Notes under the pieces: model-generated | The model's input: the letters and a program-made list of their open reading frames with translations, nothing else | What the model was told of the DNA's origin: nothing | Database searches by the model: none | Made by a program: the position numbers and the translations under genes | NCBI GenBank assembly: GCA_018004935.1 | Contig: JAGNBF010000014.1 | Location: 1 to 32,466 of the forward strand | Length of the DNA: 32,466 nt | Reading direction: 5' to 3' | Source of the DNA: Chloroflexota bacterium | GTDB taxonomy: Bacteria > Chloroflexota > Anaerolineae > Promineifilales > Promineifilaceae | Shown here: one piece after another, positions 5,362 to 32,466 of the stretch | Layout of the letters: every line of letters starts with the position of its first letter | Numbering within the stretch: the stretch's first letter is position 1

Positions 5362-7500
5362 TTATAAGGCGTGACGATTGCCCATGACACTGACATCGTA
5401 CCCAGGTAACTGAGCCACCGCCTGACGAAATGTGCCATCGTGCAGGAGATCAAGTAGCGGCCGCAACAAATCCCCTTCCCCATGTTCCGCTGGTATCACC
5501 AGGTCGTACCGCTCCTGCGCCAGGGGGACAAAATCCAGTTGCAGGGCACGCGCGGCCGCAACCACCCCCAACCCCATGTCCGCCGTACCGCTGGAAATCG
5601 CGGCCGCGACCGCCAGATGGGTGTACTCTTCCCGCTCATACCCGGTCACCATCTCCGGCACGATGCCCCGTTGGCCTAACTCATAATCCAACAACACCCG
5701 CGTCCCCGCCCCCCTCTGCCGATTTACTAACCGGATGTCCGGGCGGGCAGAGTCTTCCCACCCCTTGATCCCTTTCGGGTTGCCCGGTGGGATGATCCAG
5801 CCTTGCTCCCGCCCCACCAGGGTGATCAGCATCACCTTTTGCCCCGGCAGGTAACGGTGGATGTACGAAACGTTGTATTCACCCGTCGCCGGGTCGAGCA
5901 GGTGGGAGCCAGCCAGATGGGCTTCGCCGCGCCGTAAGGCCACCAGCCCCCCCAGACTACCCACATTAGCGGAGCTGAGTCTGCGGCCGCGTTCGGCCAA
6001 AAATTGGGCCATTAAATCCAGCGTCAAATCGTGACTGCCAATGCACAAAATCGTCCGCTCAATCTCCGGCACGGTGCGATACAGGTGAACCGTCACCTGC
6101 GCCCCCGCCTCTTCTCCTTCGCTAAACCGGGGAATCCGCACGATGCCATCCGCCCGCACCAACGAGGTAATCACCCCCGCCCCCCGGCTGATGGGCGTCG
6201 CCAACACCTTCTCCCCCACCTTACCCACCGCCACCCGCACAAAATCATCATCCCCGGTGTGAGAAACCACCTTTCGTGTCAGGGTCGCCGGGAGTGTGGG
6301 CGGCTCATAGGCCGGTTGCCCCTGCCAACGGGCCAGCAACGGCTCGACGAATATCTCCCCGGTCAGTGCGGCACTGACGGGATAGCCGGGCACGCCAATG
6401 ATGGGGAGCGAGTGGGCGAGTGGGCGAGTGGGCGAGTAGGCGACTGATTCACCGTGTCTCCGCGTCGCCGCGTCCCCCTCTCGCCGCGTCCCCGCGTCCC
6501 CGCGTCTCTCGATCATCCCTAAAATAACTGGATGCCCCGGCCTGACCGCCACCCCATGCACCAGGAGTTGGCCTAGCTCTTGCACGACGTGGGCGGTGTA
6601 ATCTTTGCTCCCGGCGGATGAACCAGCATTGACGAGGATGAGGTCGTGGGATGCGGCCGCGTCTTTCACCGCCGCCACAATCTTCTCCCACTCATCCGGC
6701 ACAATCGGCCAACGGGTGGGAATGCCCCCCCACTGCTCCACCTGCCCGGCCAGGACAAGGGAGTTGAATTCGATGATTTGGCCGGGGGAAAGGGCCGAGT
6801 GGTGAGTGCTGAGTGCTGAGTCAGGAGAGTGAGAGACTGAGAGACTGGAGACTGGAGACTGTTCGCTGTTCACTGTCAACTGTTCACGGCTAACTGCTTC
6901 CACACTGACCAACTCTGACCCGGTGGGGATGATGGCGACCCGCGGCCGCGTATAAACCGTGACCATCGCATGACCAGAACCGGCCAAGGCTCCCAGGTCA
7001 ACCGGGCGCAGTTTGTGGTTGGCGGGCAGAACCAGTTCCGTGGCGACCATATCCTCGCCCAGCGGCCGCACATGGGTCCAGGGGGCCAGGCTGGCCCGAA
7101 TCTCGATGGCCGATGCGCCGATTTTTTGGGTGTGTTCAATCATTACCACCGTATCAGCCCAGATGGGCAGGGGCGCACCGGTATTGACCGCCTGCGCCGG
7201 GCGCACCCCTGGGGCAATATCTTCCCACGCTTCGGCCAGGGTCAACTGGAGGGGATTTGTCTCGGTGGCCTCGTGGGTGTCACGGGCACGCAGGGCGTAG
7301 CCATCCATGGCACTGGCGTGGTAATGGGGGGCGGAAATTCTGGCCCACACCGGCTCGGCGGTTACGCGGCCCAACGCCTGGGTGAGCGGGATGGTTTCTG
7401 TGCCGAGGGGTTGCCAGAGAGAGGCAGATTGCAACGCGGCCGCGAACCGGCGCCACGCTTCGTCAAGGGGTAAATCTTCGAGGTAAATGTTTCGTTTCAT
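5362..7500 (-). CDS. moeA: Molybdopterin molybdenumtransferase (MoeA) fused to a C-terminal PBP-like (molybdate/tungstate-binding-type) domain. It carries two low-complexity insertions.
   Basis: MoeA motifs are 'ISAPHYHASAMDGYA', 'NTGAPLP...ADTVVMIEHT', 'PRVAIIPTGSELV' and 'LILVNAGSSAGSKDYT...VAVRPGHP'. The C-terminal ~300 aa look PBP-like. I chose the start at the 7500 ATG (MKRNIYLEDLPL). The ORF track extends the frame to 7569. Confidence 0.8.
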   Translation of the reverse strand: MKRNIYLEDLPLDEAWRRFAAALQSASLWQPLGTETIPLTQALGRVTAEPVWARISAPHYHASAMDGYALRARDTHEATETNPLQLTLAEAWEDIAPGVRPAQAVNTGAPLPIWADTVVMIEHTQKIGASAIEIRASLAPWTHVRPLGEDMVATELVLPANHKLRPVDLGALAGSGHAMVTVYTRPRVAIIPTGSELVSVEAVSREQLTVNSEQSPVSSLSVSHSPDSALSTHHSALSPGQIIEFNSLVLAGQVEQWGGIPTRWPIVPDEWEKIVAAVKDAAASHDLILVNAGSSAGSKDYTAHVVQELGQLLVHGVAVRPGHPVILGMIERRGDAGTRREGDAATRRHGESVAYSPTRPLAHSLPIIGVPGYPVSAALTGEIFVEPLLARWQGQPAYEPPTLPATLTRKVVSHTGDDDFVRVAVGKVGEKVLATPISRGAGVITSLVRADGIVRIPRFSEGEEAGAQVTVHLYRTVPEIERTILCIGSHDLTLDLMAQFLAERGRRLSSANVGSLGGLVALRRGEAHLAGSHLLDPATGEYNVSYIHRYLPGQKVMLITLVGREQGWIIPPGNPKGIKGWEDSARPDIRLVNRQRGAGTRVLLDYELGQRGIVPEMVTGYEREEYTHLAVAAAISSGTADMGLGVVAAARALQLDFVPLAQERYDLVIPAEHGEGDLLRPLLDLLHDGTFRQAVAQLPGYDVSVMGNRHAL
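6405..6510. repeat. Microsatellite-like repeats inside moeA: (gagtgggc)x3-4 followed by cgcgtcccc-type repeats
   Basis: Direct reading of 'gagtgggcgagtgggcgagtgggcgagtaggc' and 'cgcgtcgccgcgtccccctctcgccgcgtccccgcgtccccgcgtc'. On the minus strand they encode '...ERRGDAGTRREGDAATRRHGESVAYSPTRPLAHSLP...'. Confidence 0.8.
6797..6862. repeat. Microsatellite-like 7-nt repeats inside moeA: (gagtgct)x2, (gagactg)x3-4
   Basis: Direct reading. On the minus strand they encode the low-complexity segment 'SEQSPVSSLSVSHSPDSALSTHHSALSP', inserted between MoeA motifs 'IIPTGSELVSV' and 'GQIIEFNS'. Confidence 0.8.
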
Positions 7501-7758
7501 GGTGTATTGTATGATGTGTATGGCGTGGTACGTATTGGGTGGTGCGTAGGTGAGCCTAATACGCACCACGCAACATTGTACCTCATTCCCCTTGTTTCGG
7601 GGTTCTGGACGGGGCTGATCCCCGCAATTCTCAATTTAACCAACGGCTAAAACCGTTGCCCACCAAAAGCACACCCGAAAAATGGCCCAACCCGTAGAAC
7701 AGCCTTTCAGGCTGTTCGCCCTTTCGAGAAAACAAAAGCGGCAATCGCCCTGTCCATC

Positions 7759-7786
7759 TTGACACGCGGCCGCAACCCCTTATAAT
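7759..7786 (+). promoter_or_regulatory. Near-consensus sigma70 promoter: TTGACA, 16-nt spacer, TATAAT
   Basis: cTTGACAcgcggccgcaaccccTTATAATtcc. It is oriented toward the thrS leader. Confidence 0.55.
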
Positions 7787-8066
7787 TCCTCCTACATAGA
7801 CAAAACGTTGACTGGGACATGTTGGGTCTGCCCCCCGTGTTAGAGAGTGATGGGCCATAGGCTGAAAGCCCTCACCACCAAGACAGAACCAATACCCCCC
7901 AGGAGTGATTCTCAGAACGTGAACAGTCAACAATAAATAGTTGATATTCCACCAATAAGAGAATCCGGGTTACTCCGTTATCAGTTGCAATGAGAGTAAA
8001 CAACACAGCTACACAAACCCCAGTGTTTCAACTCACTGTTCACTGCCAACGGCTCACTGTTTACTA

Positions 8067-8123
8067 AATTTGGGTGGAACCGCGAGACGCCATCGCCCCA
8101 ATACCGGGGTGGTGGCGTTTTTT
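8067..8123 (+). promoter_or_regulatory. T-box riboswitch-like element (T-box motif plus terminator hairpin and U-tract) in the thrS leader
   Basis: aatttGGGTGGAACCGCGag matches the T-box consensus AGGGUGGNACCGCG. The variable N is A, as in Thr-specific T-boxes that pair with a UCCA acceptor end. It is followed by gacgccatcgcccc...ggggtggtggcg and then TTTTTT. The Stem I / specifier region was not resolved. Confidence 0.45.
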
Positions 8124-8427
8124 ATTTCCTATTCGACTCTGGCGAATTTGTACACAACCTCTGGACGTAGCACAGCCTTTCCAGGCGGTGTGTTCTCTGG
8201 TAAAACAAAAAACGCCAATGACGAGTTTCCTAGAAAAAAAGGGAACTCCAGGAACTGAGAAAAACTCATAGGATTGGAGATTAAATAACTTGAACATTTG
8301 CTGTGGCCGGTCTCCTGACCGTGCCACTTCCAGCGAACAAGTTATTTAGTTCTCCTTCCATAGGAACTCACCCCAGTTCCCATGAGTTTCCAGAGTTCCT
8401 ATGAGTTCCCACGTTCAGGAGTTTTCC

Positions 8428-10254
8428 ATGTCCGAAACAAACATCCCCTACGAACAGTCCGACCTGTACCGCATCCGCCACTCGGCCGCTCATGTCATGG
8501 CCGAGGCGGTCAAAGAATTTTTCCCGGAAGTAAAACTGGCAATCGGGCCACCCATCGAAGATGGTTTTTACTACGACTTCGACCTGGGCAAAGACGAAAA
8601 CGGCAAACCACGCACCTTCTCGCCCGAAGATTTGGAGAAGATCGAAGCCAAATTCAAAGATTTACTCAAACAAAACGCCAAATTCGAGCAGTCCACCATG
8701 ACGGTGGAGCAGGCGTTAGCCCATTTTGTTGATCAGCCATACAAACTAGAACTCATCCGCGACCTGGCGGCGGGCAAAGTGGATGAGATGGGCAACACTA
8801 CGGCCGTGCCTGCCCAGGAAGTCGGTATCTACCAACACCGGCAATTCACAGACTTGTGCCGGGGGCCACATGTCGGCTACACATCCCAGGTCAAGGCCAA
8901 CGCCGTGAAAATTTTGCGGGCCAGCGGGGCCTACTGGCGCGGCGATGAGAAAAACCCACAACTCCAGCGCATCTACGGTACGGCCTGGCCGAACAAAGTC
9001 GAATTAGACGAATATTTGCAACGGCTAGAAGAAGCCCGCAACCGAGATCACCGTAAATTGGGCAAACAACTGGGACTATTCCACATCTCCTCCCTGGTCG
9101 GTTCCGGGTTGCCCTTGTGGTTGCCCAAAGGAGCCGTTCTGCGCGAAGAGTTGGAGAGGTTTTTGCGTCAGGCACAACTAGAAAGAGGGTATCTGCCCGT
9201 CATCACGCCCCACATCGGCAAATTGGATTTGTACATTACGAGTGGGCATTATCCCTACTACAAAGATAGCCAGTACACGCCCATTGATGTGGACGGGGAA
9301 CAGTTCATGCTCAAGCCCATGAACTGCCCCCATCACATCGAAATCTACAAAAGCGAACCCCGTAGTTACCGGGATTTGCCCCTGCGTCTGGCCGAATTTG
9401 GCACGGTCTACCGCTATGAGCAGAGTGGTGAGCTAAATGGCCTGACGCGGGTGCGTGGTTTCACGGTAGATGACTCTCACCTGTTTGTCACGCTAGAACA
9501 GCTTCAGGAAGAGTTCATCGGCGTCGTCAGCCTCATCCAGCACGTGTTTAACACGATGGGCTTCCATGATTTCCGCGCCCGCCTGGGGACGAATGATCCT
9601 AACAGCGACAAATACGCTGGAACGCCGGAGATGTGGGCACAGGGCATTCACGCCATTCAGCAAGCCGCCGACAAAGTGGGCATGAATTACAAAGTAGAAG
9701 CCGGTGAAGCCGCGTTCTATGGGCCAAAACTGGACTTCATCTTCCGTGATGTGTTGAAGCGGGAATGGCAACTGGGTACGGTGCAGGTGGACTTCTTGTT
9801 GCCGCAACGGTTTGACCTGGAGTATACGGGTGAAGATGGGCAAAAACATCGCCCAGTGATGATCCATCGTGCCCCGTTTGGCAGTATGGAACGGTTTATC
9901 GGTATCCTTATTGAACATTTCAATGGGGCGTTCCCGCTATGGCTCTCACCAGTGCAGGCGATGATTGTCCCGATTACGGATCGGCATAATGAGTATGCCC
10001 GGCAAGTGGCAAATGAGTTGCGGGTCGCCGGTCTGCGGGTGCAGGTGGATGAGAGTGATGATCGGATGAACAAGAAAATCCGCAATGCCCAGTTGTTGAA
10101 GATTCCGTACATGCTGGTTATTGGGGATAAGGAAGCGGAAGCCAATGCGGTAGCTGTTCGGACGCGTACGGGTGAAGATCGGGGCGCGGTGTCTGTGGCC
10201 GAGTTCAAGGCTCAGGCGGTGAACCTGATTACCACGAAGGGTATGGAGTTGTGA
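8428..10254 (+). CDS. thrS: Threonine--tRNA ligase (ThrRS) lacking the N-terminal TGS domain
   Basis: 'RHSAAHVMAEAV' is the editing-domain HxxxH motif. It also has a class II catalytic core and a C-terminal anticodon-binding domain. AGGAG lies 6 nt upstream of the ATG at 8428. The ORF track begins at 8401 in the same frame. Confidence 0.9.
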   Translation: MSETNIPYEQSDLYRIRHSAAHVMAEAVKEFFPEVKLAIGPPIEDGFYYDFDLGKDENGKPRTFSPEDLEKIEAKFKDLLKQNAKFEQSTMTVEQALAHFVDQPYKLELIRDLAAGKVDEMGNTTAVPAQEVGIYQHRQFTDLCRGPHVGYTSQVKANAVKILRASGAYWRGDEKNPQLQRIYGTAWPNKVELDEYLQRLEEARNRDHRKLGKQLGLFHISSLVGSGLPLWLPKGAVLREELERFLRQAQLERGYLPVITPHIGKLDLYITSGHYPYYKDSQYTPIDVDGEQFMLKPMNCPHHIEIYKSEPRSYRDLPLRLAEFGTVYRYEQSGELNGLTRVRGFTVDDSHLFVTLEQLQEEFIGVVSLIQHVFNTMGFHDFRARLGTNDPNSDKYAGTPEMWAQGIHAIQQAADKVGMNYKVEAGEAAFYGPKLDFIFRDVLKREWQLGTVQVDFLLPQRFDLEYTGEDGQKHRPVMIHRAPFGSMERFIGILIEHFNGAFPLWLSPVQAMIVPITDRHNEYARQVANELRVAGLRVQVDESDDRMNKKIRNAQLLKIPYMLVIGDKEAEANAVAVRTRTGEDRGAVSVAEFKAQAVNLITTKGMEL

Positions 10255-10563
10255 GCGCCTGTTGGGTTAGGTTGTGCGCCGTTTTTGTGGTTATGAAGTG
10301 GGATGGGCGGGAGATGGGTCACAGTGCATAAGGCCTGAGGGCTTGCTCGCAAAATAATGTTTGAGTTTGCTGTGGCCGATCTCTCGACCGAGCCACCCCA
10401 GGGGCAGGAAACTTTTTTGGGTGCCGTTTTCCGGGGCGAAAGTCCCGAAAAACGGCACTGTTGAACGCCCCTTCTCGTGGGGAATTGTAGGGGGATAAGT
10501 GTCTTTTGTGGTGTGGGCCAGCACCCTGATAGCCTGAACTTAGCGAAGGTTAGCCCTGTATAG

Positions 10564-10612
10564 AAAAAACAGGGGTAACGGCGGACTGTTGTTCGCCGTT
10601 ACCCCTGTTTTT
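10564..10612. terminator. Bidirectional rho-independent terminator between convergent thrS and csp
   Basis: aaaaaa-caggggtaacggcg-gactgttgtt-cgccgttacccctg-ttttt forms a 14-bp perfect stem flanked by an A-run and a T-run. Confidence 0.75.
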
Positions 10613-10641
10613 AAATGGGCCGGAAGGCAGGTTTTCCTGTC

Positions 10642-10881
10642 TTAACCGAATAAACCACGTTTAGGCTTCACTTCTTGGGCCTGGGGGCCTTTGCCTTTGT
10701 CTATTTCCAGATACTCAACCTGGTCTCCCTCGTAAAGGTTCCGATAGCCGTCCCCTTCGATGGCAGAGTAATGGACAAAAACCTCACCACCGCCTTCTTC
10801 TGATTCAATAAAGCCATAACCCTTCATCCGACTGAACCATTTGACTATACCACGTTTCCGAGACACAGATGTTACCTCCAC
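10642..10881 (-). CDS. Cold-shock protein (CspA family, S1-like cold-shock domain)
   Basis: 'GIVKWFSRMKGYGFI' and 'FVHYSAI' are the RNP-1/RNP-2-like motifs of Csp proteins. The product is 79 aa. Confidence 0.85.
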   Translation of the reverse strand: MEVTSVSRKRGIVKWFSRMKGYGFIESEEGGGEVFVHYSAIEGDGYRNLYEGDQVEYLEIDKGKGPQAQEVKPKRGLFG

Positions 10882-11187
10882 TACGATTGAGTTACCGATA
10901 CAAGAAAGAAAGAAGCTCGTCTGCGGCCGCAGGGTGTTGAGCTAGTTACCAATACTGTTGTTTACCATTACATCGTCAGAACTGCTAACAATCTAACATG
11001 AGGCCAGGGGGTAAGTCAATCGTTGCGAATGAGAATAAACGTATCCTTCACACATAGCGTGAGTAGAGCGTGAAGGGTTTACTCATAGCAATGGGGGGGT
11101 GTTTAGCCCTATTATCAGCGGTTAAATGATGGTTATCTGAGCAGAAAATATATTTCCAATATTGCTTTGTGAAAAAAATCACCTAGT

Positions 11188-11216: not shown

Positions 11217-11602
11217 GCTTTACGTTCTCTGCTTAAGGTGTGAACGAATAAATAATGCGTGGCATAAACACACCTGTGGAGGCGAAACATGATCCACAAC
11301 AGTTCCCCCCCCTGACGCTTAATCCCCTTATTCACAGCAACTGCATGGACGTAATACGTCAGACAGGTTTCTTTGAAACTGTCACGATTGCGCTTTGCCT
11401 GTCTGCTTCTTAATTGGACGTAACGATACACGTCAAAAACCGGGTTTTTCTTTTGTAGGGCATGAACTGGCCCAAGCAAAAACCTGGTTTCTCCAGCGAG
11501 GCTGTATAGTTACATCGAAACATTGTTTTTGTTAGCCAACCTGATTTCAGAGCGCAACTGGTAGGCTCCTTTTTAGTGTCATGCGCCCTAAGGTGTAAGA
11601 AA

Positions 11603-13426
11603 ATGGAAACGTTTATTTTAATTGCGGTGTTTGGCTTTTTTGGGCTGATGCTGGCCCTGATTTTTGCTAAACAGTTACTAGGCCTGGTGATTATCAACGA
11701 ACGGGAAGTGGGTATTGTTGTTAAGAAATTTGGTACGCGTCTGGCGGCCGGGCAATTGATTGCCCTGAAAGGCGAAGCCGGGTATCAGGCGGATACGTTG
11801 CCCCCAGGCTGGCACTTTTTCTATTTTCCCTGGCAGTTTTCGGTGCGAAAAGTGCCTATGACGATTATTCCGCAGGGGCAAATTGGTGTGGTTGTCGCGG
11901 CCGCGGGCAGTGCCATCCCCTCAGAACGTATCCTGGGCAAAATCGTCCTCTGTGATAATTACCAGGACACCCGTAAATTCTTAATGAATGGGGGTGAAAA
12001 AGGACGGCAATTAGGAATTCTGACCGCTGGTACTTACCGTATCAACACCGCTTTGTTTACCGTCATTACGGCGAATAATGCGCAACAACAGGGCATGGCC
12101 CCAGAATTGCTCCAGGTCTATGCCGTACAACCAGATCGGGTCGGTATTGTAACGACCCTGGATGGGAAATCCATTGACGAAGGTGAGATTGCCGGGCCGA
12201 TTCTTTATGGGCATGATAACTTCCAAAATGCTCAAGTTTTTCTGAACCAGGGGGGGCGGCGCGGTCTGCAAGAACAAGTCCTGCTCTCTGGTTCGTGGAA
12301 CCTTAATCCCTGGTTTGTTAGTGTCGAACAGGTTCCTATGACCCAAATTCCCATCGGCCATGTGGGGATTGTGATTGCCTTTGTGGGTAAAGCTCATGAA
12401 GATGTGAGTGGTAAAGGGTTTAAACATGGCAACCTGGTGGAACCCGGCCACAAAGGGGTGTGGGTGACTCCCCTTTACCCCGGTAAACATCCCCTCAACT
12501 CCCGAGTGATGAAGGTAGAACTGGTACCCACAACCAATATTGTTTTGAACTGGGCCACTCGTACCGAATCTCATAACCTGGATGCCAAACTGGCCCCGGT
12601 AACGGTACGCTCTAAAGACGGATTTGCCTTCAATCTGGATGTGGCCCAAATCATTCACATTGGGGCCGAAGATGCCCCAAAGGTCATTTCTCGCGTGGGG
12701 GCGGTGCAAAATCTGGTGGATCATGTCTTACAACCGATTGTCGGGAACTATTTCCGTAACTCGGCGCAAGAGTATACGGTGTTAGACTTCCTCAGTGCTC
12801 GTAGCGAACGGCAAAGAGAAGCCACTGAACACATTCGCCGGGCCATTAGTGCTTATGACGTTCAGGCGTTGGATACACTCATTGGTGATATAACGCCACC
12901 GGCGGAACTGATGAAGACCCAGACGGATCGGAAGATTGCTGAGGAAGAGCGCAAAACGTATGATGTGCAGAAACTGGCGCAAGATCAACGGCAGGAGTTG
13001 GTCCGGGCAAATGCGCTGGCCAATATTCAGCAGGAGATGGTTACATCGGAGCAAGGTGTACAAATTGCTGAACTGAAGGCGCAGGCGGTGATGAAAGAAG
13101 CGAAGGGTGATGCCGAAGCAACACGCTTGAAGGCGTTGGGTGAGGCAGAGGCTATTCGTACCACCGGTAAGGCGCGGGCCGAAGCGTATCTGGTGGGTGT
13201 GGAAGCGCTGGGGGTTCAAGGCTTTACGACGCTACAGATGATGCAAATTATTGGGGAGCGGCAGGTGCGCATTGTGCCAGATGTTTCAGTAACAGGGAGC
13301 GATGGTGCTGGCCTGGTTGAAAGTTTGTTGGGCATGACGTTGCGTAATCAGGTACAAGGAGGACAGTTGCTGAAGGAAAATGGTGGTAGTAGTCCGCGGC
13401 CGCAACTCAGCAAAACAACTGAGTAA
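11603..13426 (+). CDS. SPFH/band-7 flotillin-like protein (FloT/YqiK type)
   Basis: It has an N-terminal transmembrane segment and an SPFH core. The C-terminal half is Ala/Glu-rich coiled coil ('KAQAVMKEAKGDAEATRLKALGEAEAIRTTGKARAEAYL'). AAGGTG lies upstream of the ATG at 11603. The track ORF starts at 11576. Confidence 0.8.
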   Translation: METFILIAVFGFFGLMLALIFAKQLLGLVIINEREVGIVVKKFGTRLAAGQLIALKGEAGYQADTLPPGWHFFYFPWQFSVRKVPMTIIPQGQIGVVVAAAGSAIPSERILGKIVLCDNYQDTRKFLMNGGEKGRQLGILTAGTYRINTALFTVITANNAQQQGMAPELLQVYAVQPDRVGIVTTLDGKSIDEGEIAGPILYGHDNFQNAQVFLNQGGRRGLQEQVLLSGSWNLNPWFVSVEQVPMTQIPIGHVGIVIAFVGKAHEDVSGKGFKHGNLVEPGHKGVWVTPLYPGKHPLNSRVMKVELVPTTNIVLNWATRTESHNLDAKLAPVTVRSKDGFAFNLDVAQIIHIGAEDAPKVISRVGAVQNLVDHVLQPIVGNYFRNSAQEYTVLDFLSARSERQREATEHIRRAISAYDVQALDTLIGDITPPAELMKTQTDRKIAEEERKTYDVQKLAQDQRQELVRANALANIQQEMVTSEQGVQIAELKAQAVMKEAKGDAEATRLKALGEAEAIRTTGKARAEAYLVGVEALGVQGFTTLQMMQIIGERQVRIVPDVSVTGSDGAGLVESLLGMTLRNQVQGGQLLKENGGSSPRPQLSKTTE

Positions 13427-14639: not shown

Positions 14640-15115
14640 TCTACGCGGATTTCCCCCACCCCTAACCCCGCCCCCAGGGGCGGGGAACTTTTAGTGGGCG
14701 TTTTTCGCGGGCATTCGCCCGCGAAAAACGCCCACATTGTTTTTTCCCCTTCCTGCGGGGAATGGTTAGGGGGATGGATTATGGGGCGTGCGGATTTTCT
14801 CTGCCTCTAATCCCGATCCCAGGGGCGGGGAACTTTTAGTGGCCGTTTTTCGCGGGCATTCGCCCGCGAAAAACGCCCACATTGTGTTTTTCCCTTCCTG
14901 CGGGGAATGGTTAGGGGGATGGGTTATGGGGCGTGCAGATTTTCTCTGCCTCTAATCCCGATCCCAGGGGCGGGGAACTTTTAGTGGGCGTTTTTTCCCC
15001 TTCCTGCGGGGAATGGTTAGGGGGATGGGTTATGGGGCGTGCGGATTTTCTCTGCCTCTAATCCCGATCCCAGGGGCGGGGAACTTTTAGTGGGCGTTTT
15101 TCCCTTCCTGCCGGG
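14640..15115. repeat. Array of 4 tandem family-A units (~146, 144, 114 bp, then a truncated unit). Units 1-2 carry a 17-bp-stem hairpin. Units 3-4 have it precisely deleted.
   Basis: Each unit begins ccaggggcggggaactttt. The hairpin is gggcgtttttcgcgggc-att-gcccgcgaaaaacgccc at 14696-14733 and 14841-14878. Units 3-4 read ...gggcgttttttcccc..., lacking the hairpin. Confidence 0.85.
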
Positions 15116-21163: not shown

Positions 21164-21826
21164 GTATTCATCGCAAAATATAGCGCCTAAGAAAAAGATG
21201 TTGGGTTCTTTTGGAATTGGCGGTGGGTGGCACGGTCAGGAGATCCGCCACAGCAAAGGAAGACCAGCGACAGCAGGGGGGAAATTCAATCACGCTCAGA
21301 TAAGTTCCCGGCCCGCAGGGGCGGGGTTAGGGCGGGGGTTACTGGGGCCAATTGCCCCTGAGACTTGTCATAAAACGCTAATGACTACTTTCGTAATAGT
21401 GTCCTAGATTTCTGGATTCAGCACACTTTTCTTATGCTATAATGCCCAGCGAGGGGAATTCACGGCCTTTACATTGGTTTACCTCTGGTAAATTGTTATT
21501 ATTTTTCGTAACTATACACGTCCTCGAGGGCTGAGCTTGTCGAAGGTGGAGCCGGGCTTCGACAAACTCAGCCCTCGCTATACCCCACCTGTATAGATAC
21601 TATTTTTCAATCATAACGGTAAAGCCAGCGGTTCTTGGGAATTCAGGGGGTTGTCCGTACCCCTCGAAACCCCCAAGCGACTTACGCGATTGCTGGAGCG
21701 AGTCTTCTGACTGTGTTTTTGTGGCTGGGTGGGGACACAGCCACAGCCCGTTAAGTTCTATTCTCAATAAATATTCCTGAGCCAGCCGAAGCCTTCTTCC
21801 TGGCCCTCTCTGAAGCGAACCATACG

Positions 21827-31504: not shown

Positions 31505-32039
31505 ACATTATCGGGTGAGCAAACCCGCCCGGCGGTCAAACCGCCAGGCTTTCAGTAGTCGTGCAAAAATAACGTGGGTGGCACGGTCAGGCGACCGGCC
31601 ACAGCAAAGCGTTCAGTTAAATTCGGGTACCGTGTTGATTCGCCCATCCCCCTACGATTCCTGCCGAGAAGGGAGAAATACCAGGAGTGCCGGTTTTCGA
31701 GCGCACCGCCGCGCTCGAAAACCGGCACATTAAAAAGTTCCCCGCCTCTGGGGCAGGGTTAGGGGTGGGAGAAAATCCACGTATGCAATTGCCCCACAAA
31801 CCAGAGAAAATTACCGGGCAGGGGCTGTATTTTGTGTTAGAGTTGAGCAGAAAAAGCTGGTCAGCCAGGAAGCTATAGCTTTCAAGAAAAAGATTTTGGG
31901 TTTGTAGTAACCGCTTTAGCGGTCCCACGCTGGACGGCTAAAGCCGTTACTACCAACCAAAACCCCAAATGATTTTCTGAACATCTATAAGAAGCTGGTC
32001 AGCATTTCAGCCAGTCAGCACTTCGGCTGACAAGCCGAC

Positions 32040-32466
32040 CAGCTAAAATGCTGACAAACTATTCTTACAGGAGTTCCCCATGGATGGTATGCACACCAAG
32101 ATGGATGAAAATAACGCCACCATTTTTCATTCCTATCCGTGTTTTTTCCTATCCGTGTTTCCACCATCAGTGGCAATTTTCTCAGGAGTTCCCCATGTGC
32201 CTTTGGCACACCAAGAGGGATGAAAATCTGTAGGACGATTTGGTAAATCGTCCGGGCGATTTGCCAAATCGCCCTACATTTCGTAGGAGTTCCCCATGGG
32301 CCTATGGCACACCAAGATGGATGAAAATAACGCCACCATTTTTCATTCCTATCCGTGTTTTTTCCTATCCGTGTTTCCACCATCAGTGGCAATTTTCTCA
32401 GGAGTTCCCCATGTGCCTTTGGCACACCAAGAGGGATGAAAATCTGTAGGACGATTTGGTAAATCG
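32040..32466. repeat. Higher-order tandem array. It consists of 43-bp units (ggagttccccatgNgcctNtggcacaccaagaNggatgaaaat) alternating with two different inserts of 72 and 58 bp. Each insert occurs twice, so the array is a ~216-bp super-unit duplicated. It runs off the window end.
   Basis: Direct reading. Units lie at 32069, 32184, 32285 and 32400. Insert 1 is identical at 32112-32183 and 32328-32399. Insert 2 (32227-32284 and 32443-end) is a near-perfect ~50-bp palindrome made of two 9-bp-stem hairpins, ggacgattt-ggt-aaatcgtcc and gggcgattt-gcc-aaatcgccc. Confidence 0.85.

Follow-up and report, generated by a model that had tools for sequence, protein, structure and literature searches.

The thrS Locus and Its Leader

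The 32,466-nt stretch analyzed here (contig JAGNBF010000014.1 of a Chloroflexota bacterium of the family Promineifilaceae, class Anaerolineae, positions 1 to 32,466; hereafter the window) contains a single-promoter leader 5′ of thrS, the gene for threonyl-tRNA synthetase (ThrRS), and it is this leader, comprising a T-box riboswitch and a long repeat-filled spacer before the start codon, that is the subject of this report. The ThrRS is a TIGR00418 equivalog (719 bits, NCBIfam) with the Pfam domains tRNA_SAD, tRNA-synt_2b, and HGTP_anticodon, and exact matches to its sequence are present in GCA_037045095.1 and GCA_020049675.1. Upstream of the leader, on the opposite strand, lies a MoeA/PBP-like open reading frame (ORF) at 5362-7569. 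Eight orthologous thrS leaders, taken from genomes and metagenomes and referred to by locus number, were compared with that of the window, giving nine leaders overall; Rfam scans covered six of the eight, L168 and L169 not being among them. The promoter, riboswitch, and gene features are as follows.

7759-7786, + strand: sigma-70-type promoter, TTGACA-16 nt-TATAAT, matching at 12 of 12 positions
7799-8103, + strand: T-box leader RNA (Stem I, Stem II, IIA/B, Stem III, and antiterminator), by match to RF00230
7803-7911, + strand: Stem I, with K-turn base, AG bulge (AGAGAG), distal loop (GGCUGAAAGCC), and specifier loop
7894-7896, + strand: specifier codon ACC (Thr), at the specifier position of the model and directly 5′ of the basal helix
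8067-8084, + strand: conserved T-box sequence AAUUUGGGUGGAACCGCG; the core reads aatttGGGTGGAACCGCGag across 8067-8086
8084-8123, + strand: intrinsic terminator, stem 8084-8121 of 16 pairs (9 G-C) with a T-run to 8123
8417-8421, + strand: Shine-Dalgarno (SD) sequence AGGAG of thrS, 6 nt 5′ of the ATG
8428-10254, + strand: thrS, threonine-tRNA ligase of 608 amino acids (ATG at 8428), by TIGR00418 and Pfam domains

The promoter is the sole such site between 7400 and 8600, and one copy of an over-represented octamer palindrome, GCGGCCGC, falls within its 16-nt spacer. L163 and L168 keep the sequence CTTGACAcgcggccgcaNccNcTTATAAT, the same promoter is visible in L169, and L165 has GTTGACAtgcggccgcgaccccTTATAAT. 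No second promoter was found in 7400-8600, and no sigma-70-like site matching at 9 or more of 12 positions was found in the spacer at 8124-8427.

The T-Box Riboswitch

The match to RF00230 is full-length (model positions 1-219) and was scored at 73.6 bits (E = 6.9e-16) in a permissive scan of the leader, whereas Rfam at its gathering threshold reported nothing in the whole window. All six scanned orthologous leaders also gave full-length T-box matches, at 76.8-107.2 bits, and two of the six exceed the gathering cut-off of 93 bits (L001 at 107.2 bits and L083 at 105.4 bits). The low score in the window is due to two large loop insertions, of ~30 nt and ~51 nt, which the model aligns to the loops of the helices that it calls Stem II and Stem III, together with a degenerate S-turn; several members of the orthologous group fall below the cut-off for the same reasons, loop expansions and the degenerate S-turn.

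In a consensus fold of the eight orthologues, compensatory double changes are found in 12 of the 21 pairs of Stem I. The ACC codon, GGGUGGAAC(C/U)GCGA, and the terminator are unchanged in all nine leaders. In the window and its close relatives L163, L165, L168, and L169, the S-turn AGUA/GAA has become UGUU/CAA on both sides (window 7818-7822 and 7890-7897), and the base 3′ of ACC is C rather than a purine; the more distant orthologues L167, L083, and L001 keep AGUA...GAA, and L083 and L001 also keep ACC-A. Both the S-turn and the purine 3′ of the codon are common in T-boxes but not universal, and their absence was treated as a variant and not as grounds for exclusion.

At the 3′ end of the riboswitch, UGGA (8075-8078) sits in a 7-nt antiterminator bulge, UGGAACC (8075-8081), and on its sequence predicts a U73 discriminator in tRNA-Thr. 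The antiterminator helices read from the sequence pair UUGGG (8070-8074) with CCCAA (8097-8101) and GCGA (8082-8085) with UCGC (8093-8096). The terminator, at -29.0 kcal/mol in the window and found in all nine leaders, and the antiterminator are mutually exclusive; the 5′ arm of the former, from 8084, takes in the sequence of the latter's 3′ half (8093-8101). The assignment of the thrS leader as a tRNA-sensing T-box with minor variant features is supported by these sequence comparisons. Chloroflexi are known from earlier work to have T-boxes, among whose classic targets is thrS (PMC2494555, PMC3766115).

An earlier, sequence-only reading of the window had pointed to a near-perfect sigma70 promoter at 7759-7786, a T-box consensus match at 8067-8084, and a hairpin with a U-tract immediately following it (8086-8123), and had proposed a scan with RF00230 and a search for an ACC or ACU specifier. 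The features that it described lie where it placed them or at most 2 nt away, the scan gave the significant, if sub-threshold, match above, and the specifier is ACC within an identifiable Stem I; none of the outcomes that the reading had listed as refuting it was observed.

The Spacer Between the Terminator and thrS

From the T-run of the terminator to the ATG is 304 nt in the window, in agreement with the earlier remark that the terminator does not adjoin the gene and that ~300 nt more follow. The corresponding spacers of relatives, listed by the identity of their ThrRS to that of the window, are as follows.

L163, 92% identical: 113 nt
L165, 91% identical: 80 nt
L166, 84% identical: 93 nt
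L167, 83% identical: 23 nt
L083, 80% identical: 70 nt
L001, 78% identical: 15 nt

The spacer sequences are largely unrelated among these relatives. In the window, 8124-8440 folds at -118.1 kcal/mol, compared to -75.1 +/- 5.4 for dinucleotide shuffles (z = -8.0), and the predicted stability of the spacer is far above chance. A long hairpin, apparent as an inverted repeat and in the predicted fold, is built of the helices 8281-8292/8338-8349, 8297-8307/8323-8337, and 8308-8312/8317-8321; in the minimum-free-energy fold it (8281-8349) is enclosed by long-range pairing between ~8241-8273 and ~8357-8410. These are the hairpin (8282-8348) and the pairing (8232-8275 with 8350-8400) that the sequence-only reading had recognized. 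The same reading had suggested that a CTCCT could sequester the SD, and this did not hold: CTCCT (8352-8356) belongs to the terminal repeat of an inserted element, described below as ins2, and its predicted partner is GGAGA at 8276-8280, not the SD. The most probable predicted partner of the SD is instead UCCU at 8228-8231 (P ~0.5), in a 7-bp helix (UCCU-GAA/UUC-AGGA) that would close a giant hairpin of the spacer. This partner varies between species: in L163 it is a UUCCU that follows the hairpin on its 3′ side, and in L168 and L169 the UCC of codons 2-3. Further riboswitches, be they another T-box, in tandem or not, or of a different class, were also sought in 8124-8427, but Rfam gave no match at E <0.5 beyond the T-box itself. 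The elements of the spacer, and one related copy outside it, are as follows.

7693-7745, + strand: partial ins1-type copy just 5′ of the promoter, aligned to 8165-8219
8125-8131, + strand: target-site duplication TTTCCTA, copy 1 (ins1 flank), identical to 8226-8232
8132-8225, + strand: ins1, a 94-nt insertion resembling a miniature inverted-repeat transposable element (MITE), with imperfect terminal inverted repeats; no counterpart in L163, L168, or L169
8226-8232, + strand: target-site duplication TTTCCTA, copy 2, which includes the predicted SD partner UCCU (8228-8231)
8241-8273, + strand: 5′ arm of the repeat array (GGGAACTC, AGGAACT, AAACTCATAGGA), pairing with 8382-8410; homologues in L163, L168, and L169
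8274-8358, + strand: ins2, an 85-nt insertion, again MITE-like, whose terminal inverted repeats (~19 nt) are imperfect; from the excision comparison and fold
8297-8327, + strand: 31-nt core hairpin TTTGCTGTGGCCGGTCTCCTGACCGTGCCAC, a dispersed repeat like repetitive extragenic palindromes (REP), inside ins2
8359-8411, + strand: apical hairpin GGAACU-CACCCC-AGUUCC (8363-8380) and 3′ arm of the array, from the repeats and predicted fold

Two Inserted Elements

Excising ins1 and ins2, each with one copy of its flanking duplication, leaves a 111-nt spacer that aligns end to end with those of L163, L168, and L169. The duplication flanking ins2 is the 7-bp CATAGGA, at 8267-8273 and 8359-8365, and the junction created by its excision, CTCATAGGAACTCACCCC, matches CTCATAGAAATTCACCCT of L169. 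Each element is predicted to fold on itself, ins1 as its own hairpin domain (8131-8226) and ins2 as the long hairpin together with CTCCT. The only further copy of ins1 is the partial one at 7693-7745, which aligns locally to 8165-8219 with a score of 34, as against at most 25 in 1000 shuffles. The REP-like core of ins2 is more abundant: other copies are present in the window at 10366-10396 (+), 21227-21257 (-), and 31578-31608 (-), and the 9 kb that follow in this species (L171) contain another three, for a total of seven copies in ~41 kb; none was found in sister species. Members of this family have only the 31-nt core in common, and of the four copies in the window, three follow an ORF at a distance of 75-135 nt, a placement typical of REP-like elements. 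We conclude that ins1 and ins2 are, as judged from these alignments, recent and species-specific MITE/REP-like insertions.

The 5′ end of ins1 resembles the 3′ half of the T-box terminator, and the terminator 3′ arm plus U-tract (8113-8127, TGGCGTTTTTTATTT) is 93% complementary to the ins1 3′ terminal repeat (8203-8217, AAACAAAAAACGCCA).

The GGAACTC/GAGTTCC Array

What remains after excision is an inverted array of GGAACTC/GAGTTCC units, common to the window and to L163, L168, and L169 of the same genus-level clade (ThrRS 92-93% identical to that of the window). Its 3′ arm consists of direct ~10-nt repeats, AGTTCCCAT / GAGTTTCCA / GAGTTCCTAT / GAGTTCCCA. Array repeats are missing from L165, L166, L167, L001, and L083, and L165, which is equally close to the window, has an unrelated GCGAGTA repeat in its place. 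Among the four sequences, the array hairpin owes its conservation mainly to the identity of its inverted units; three double changes were seen, and the covariation term is -0.12. At four-fold degenerate sites of thrS, the array-bearing lineages are only 44-49% identical to one another; the retention of perfect 7-mers despite such diverged neutral sites therefore suggests selection or concerted evolution.

Sister species carry a second ThrRS paralogue directly 3′ of the first (hereafter thrS2 and thrS1), with no T-box of its own (L163 5038-6852, L168 3501-5318, L169 3501-5318, and L166 4906-6756). In L163, L168, and L169, direct repeats of the GAGTTCC unit adjoin the SD of thrS2 on its 5′ side, and the 18-mer at 8394-8411 of the window is identical to L163 5004-5021, upstream of thrS2. 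The two paralogues are 57% identical overall and near-identical across their C-terminal ~130 residues, which shows, on sequence grounds, gene conversion between them; such conversion could also spread leader repeats.

Dense array clusters appeared to be limited to thrS1 and thrS2 leaders in 1.08 Mb of sequence, before they were found in other contexts. A class II aldolase gene of the window's species is preceded, at a distance of 9 nt, by the array GAGTTCCCACGAGTTCCCAGAGTTCCT, and in L176 AAGTTCCTATGAGTTCCCAT stands directly 5′ of the aldolase orthologue, a 20-mer identical to one before L163 thrS2. The aroA coding sequence of L176 contains GGGGAACTYRG four times in frame beside other heptamer repeats; this in-frame block, at L176 331-415, is made up of GGGGAACTYRG, CACTCAG, and TCCTCAG. 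Reading the array as a thrS-specific operator was consequently dropped, and the array is filed as a putative member of a dispersed short-tandem-repeat family, with possibly no function.

Interpretation

The sequence-only reading combined tRNA-sensing antitermination with a second, translational layer reminiscent of ThrRS autoregulation in Escherichia coli. Its first half stands, on the covariance match, the ACC specifier, and the UGGA bulge; its second half does not, as the structure that it rested on includes species-specific insertions, the predicted SD partner is species-variable, and the array fails the test of thrS specificity, being found also before the aldolase gene and inside aroA. 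Nor is the likeness to E. coli borne out. No mimic of the tRNA-Thr anticodon loop is present in the hairpin loops of the window, L163, L168, or L169; the spacer hairpin loops read UUCC, UCCU, and CACCCC, and the U-NGU-R strings fall almost wholly inside predicted helices and not in loops. A threonine-specific translational layer in the thrS leader is thus not supported.

We consider it probable that the locus represents ordinary T-box control of thrS plus a spacer of stacked repeats, with no demonstrated second regulator. Transcription would start a few bases past the promoter, and the first ~330 nt would act, by analogy to established T-boxes, as a canonical transcription-attenuating riboswitch. 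The ACC specifier in Stem I would read the tRNA-Thr anticodon, and the UGGA bulge, by pairing with the NCCA end that uncharged tRNA leaves free, would stabilize the antiterminator; without that pairing, the terminator at 8084-8123 would form and transcription would stop. Transcripts that read through would then carry the 304-nt spacer before the SD, not as a designed second switch but as the probable product of an ancestral 111 nt, itself an inverted array of ~10-nt units, into which two MITE-like elements were inserted in the window's species only. Because each insertion is predicted to fold on itself, the ancestral arms would still be able to pair and the SD context would be kept. Any effect of the array on thrS would most likely be generic, on mRNA stability or translation efficiency, and not threonine-specific.

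Several observations weigh against this interpretation. The T-box score is below the Rfam cut-off, and the S-turn is degenerate in the very clade for which T-box function is deduced from sequence. No tRNA gene is present in the window, and no tRNA-Thr gene, in which U73 would be expected, is among the 35 tRNAs of the compared loci. The predicted probability that the SD is unpaired is 0.22 in the window, as against 0.43-0.60 in relatives. GAGTTCC units and the hairpin architecture have been kept in three lineages despite the 44-49% four-fold identity, and in every array at a gene start the sense strand reads GAGTTCC, with 9-35 nt to the start codon; such persistence and constancy of orientation and position hint at selection and hence at some function.

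The last of these points lead to the proposal that the array is an undescribed cis-element of the Promineifilaceae clade, acting as RNA or DNA and bound near start codons by some factor, be it a protein that binds RNA, the ribosome or S1, or a DNA-binding protein of response-regulator type that recognizes 10-bp direct repeats. Arrays are indeed kept at orthologous sites, before thrS1 in three lineages, thrS2 at three loci, and the aldolase gene in two species, with neutral sites near-saturated; the 20-mer AAGTTCCTATGAGTTCCCAT is the same before two different genes, the 9-10-nt period is compatible with direct-repeat binding sites, and one compensatory change occurs in L169. We nevertheless judge this proposal unlikely. 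The unit is also a plain tandem repeat within a coding sequence, L165 does without it at equal relatedness, copy number and arrangement are freely variable, and the covariation term is just -0.12; in addition, genomes of the clade are rich in 7-10-nt tandem repeats, and the C-terminal gene conversion between ThrRS1 and ThrRS2 could homogenize their leaders too. Were the proposal true, thrS1 would pair tRNA-sensing attenuation with an array-based control that survived two mobile-hairpin insertions.

Far less probable is a translational-switch role for the spacer, with the pyrimidine tract CTCCT sequestering the SD and perhaps with ThrRS binding, as in E. coli thrS autoregulation. The mostly paired state predicted for the SD, the 7-bp helix that would close the giant hairpin, and the pairing of the L163 SD, too, with UUCCU would all suit a switch, but the partner of CTCCT is within ins2, both insertions are limited to the window's species, and the SD partner is not conserved, its helix having a probability of only ~0.5; moreover, a hairpin loop resembling the tRNA-Thr anticodon is absent in all four species, and the conserved repeats are also found 5′ of non-thrS genes. 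We give still less credence to the insertions or array supplying an internal promoter that would make thrS expression independent of the T-box. A partial ins1-like copy does lie directly 5′ of the real promoter, and thrS2 and the aldolase gene must have promoters near their arrays; against this, 8124-8427 is devoid of the sigma-70-like sites sought there, and arrays that end 9-35 nt from start codons leave little room for a promoter plus leader.

Comparison with Known Systems

The thrS leader is like the Bacillus subtilis thrS/thrZ T-box leaders of RF00230 in its Stem I, with K-turn, AG bulge, and distal and specifier loops, in its Thr specifier codon and its T-box sequence with a UGGN bulge, and in its competing antiterminator and terminator 5′ of an aminoacyl-tRNA synthetase gene. 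It departs from the RF00230 norm in its sub-cut-off score, its UGUU/CAA S-turn, the C after the codon, and a terminator 304 nt from the start codon. The E. coli thrS operator mediates ThrRS autoregulation through mimicry of the tRNA-Thr anticodon arm. Like it, the window has a structured RNA immediately 5′ of the thrS SD, but one without anticodon-like loops and with no conserved SD pairing, made of dispersed repeats that are also found before other genes.

Bacterial untranslated regions (UTRs) are known to harbor insertions, including REP and bacterial interspersed mosaic elements (BIMEs) and MITEs, e.g., the Correia, ERIC (enterobacterial repetitive intergenic consensus), BOX, and RUP (repeat unit of pneumococcus) elements. 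ins1 and ins2 resemble these in being 85-94 nt long and non-coding, with terminal inverted repeats, hairpins, and short flanking duplications, and the copies of the ins2 core resemble them in being numerous, in lying mainly between genes, and in their frequent placement just past the 3′ end of a gene; the inserted elements differ in that no published description of the family was found and no transposase partner was identified. The 7-10-nt units, occurring as tandem arrays at many loci in several species, are reminiscent of cyanobacterial short tandemly repeated repetitive (STRR) sequences, although the phylum is Chloroflexota and the unit is GAGTTCC.

With this locus, an uncultured wastewater lineage of Chloroflexota gains a well-supported Thr T-box that threshold-based annotation misses. 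The locus shows that nested mobile hairpins can be accommodated between a T-box terminator and the SD, here tripling the spacer with the riboswitch undisturbed, and it cautions that a very stable 5′ UTR structure need not be a regulator. The clade-wide GAGTTCC arrays by start codons provide a lead for studies of repeat dynamics in filamentous bacteria.

Neighboring Genes and Other Repeats

Where sister species have the second thrS, the window has a convergent csp gene 3′ of thrS, and the upstream neighbor of thrS1 is MoeA-like in the window vs. LytR_cpsA_psr in sister species; the locus has therefore been rearranged on both sides. A 616-amino acid ORF at 11576-13426 was considered as a second ThrRS and rejected, as it has no NCBIfam match, is annotated as Band_7, and has a leader lacking a T-box. 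Between the convergent thrS and csp genes, a strong symmetric hairpin at 10556-10612 with A-run and T-run flanks (aaaaaacaggggtaacggcgg...ccgccgttacccctgttttt) is probably a bidirectional terminator; it also gave a weak chance match to the IhtA small RNA (E = 0.44).

The palindrome GCGGCCGC occurs at 46 sites in the 32.5 kb (e.g., 773, 7766, and 31385), in both coding and non-coding DNA, whereas 100 dinucleotide shuffles yielded a mean of 0.84 and a maximum of 3, and the next commonest 8-mer palindrome has 3 sites. Its excess, 0.7-2.5 per kb, extends over a genus-level clade (L163, L165, L168, L169, and L171-L176) and not to more distant Promineifilaceae. The thrS1 coding sequence is without GCGGCCGC in five of five lineages (window 7774-10922; L163, L165, L168, and L169), ~2.5 per gene being expected from the local density; thrS2 of L163, L168, and L169 has two sites. 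In having an extremely over-represented octamer palindrome, the clade is like cyanobacteria bearing the highly iterated palindrome HIP1, but the latter is GCGATCGC (PMC6105098) and not GCGGCCGC; a literature search found no paper linking GCGGCCGC with "highly iterated palindrome".

The MoeA/PBP-like ORF, 735 amino acids in the window and two genes in L081 according to gene callers, contains at 6408-6896 tandem repeats of 7-8 nt: GCGAGTGG, CCGCGTCC, GAGTGCT, GGAGACT, and ACTGTTC. A 216-nt tandem repeat begins at 32069 and continues through the window end at 32466 into L171, to ~12700. Its sub-units begin with AGGAGTTCCCCATG, an SD and ATG look-alike, and include TTCCTATCCGTGTTT twice; gene callers report 47-amino acid ORFs within it. 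It is upstream of an enoyl-CoA hydratase gene, and on that account the suggestion that the block from 32069 was a thrS2 leader was rejected. Its ACACGGATAGG motif is also found 5′ of thrS2 in L163 and L168. Large tandem repeats with periods of 156, 145, and 106 nt, 95% matches, and hairpins occupy 1-296 and 14662-15115; they contain the motif TAGGGGGATGGGT, which also flanks some of the REP-like copies (e.g., near 10490 and 31640).

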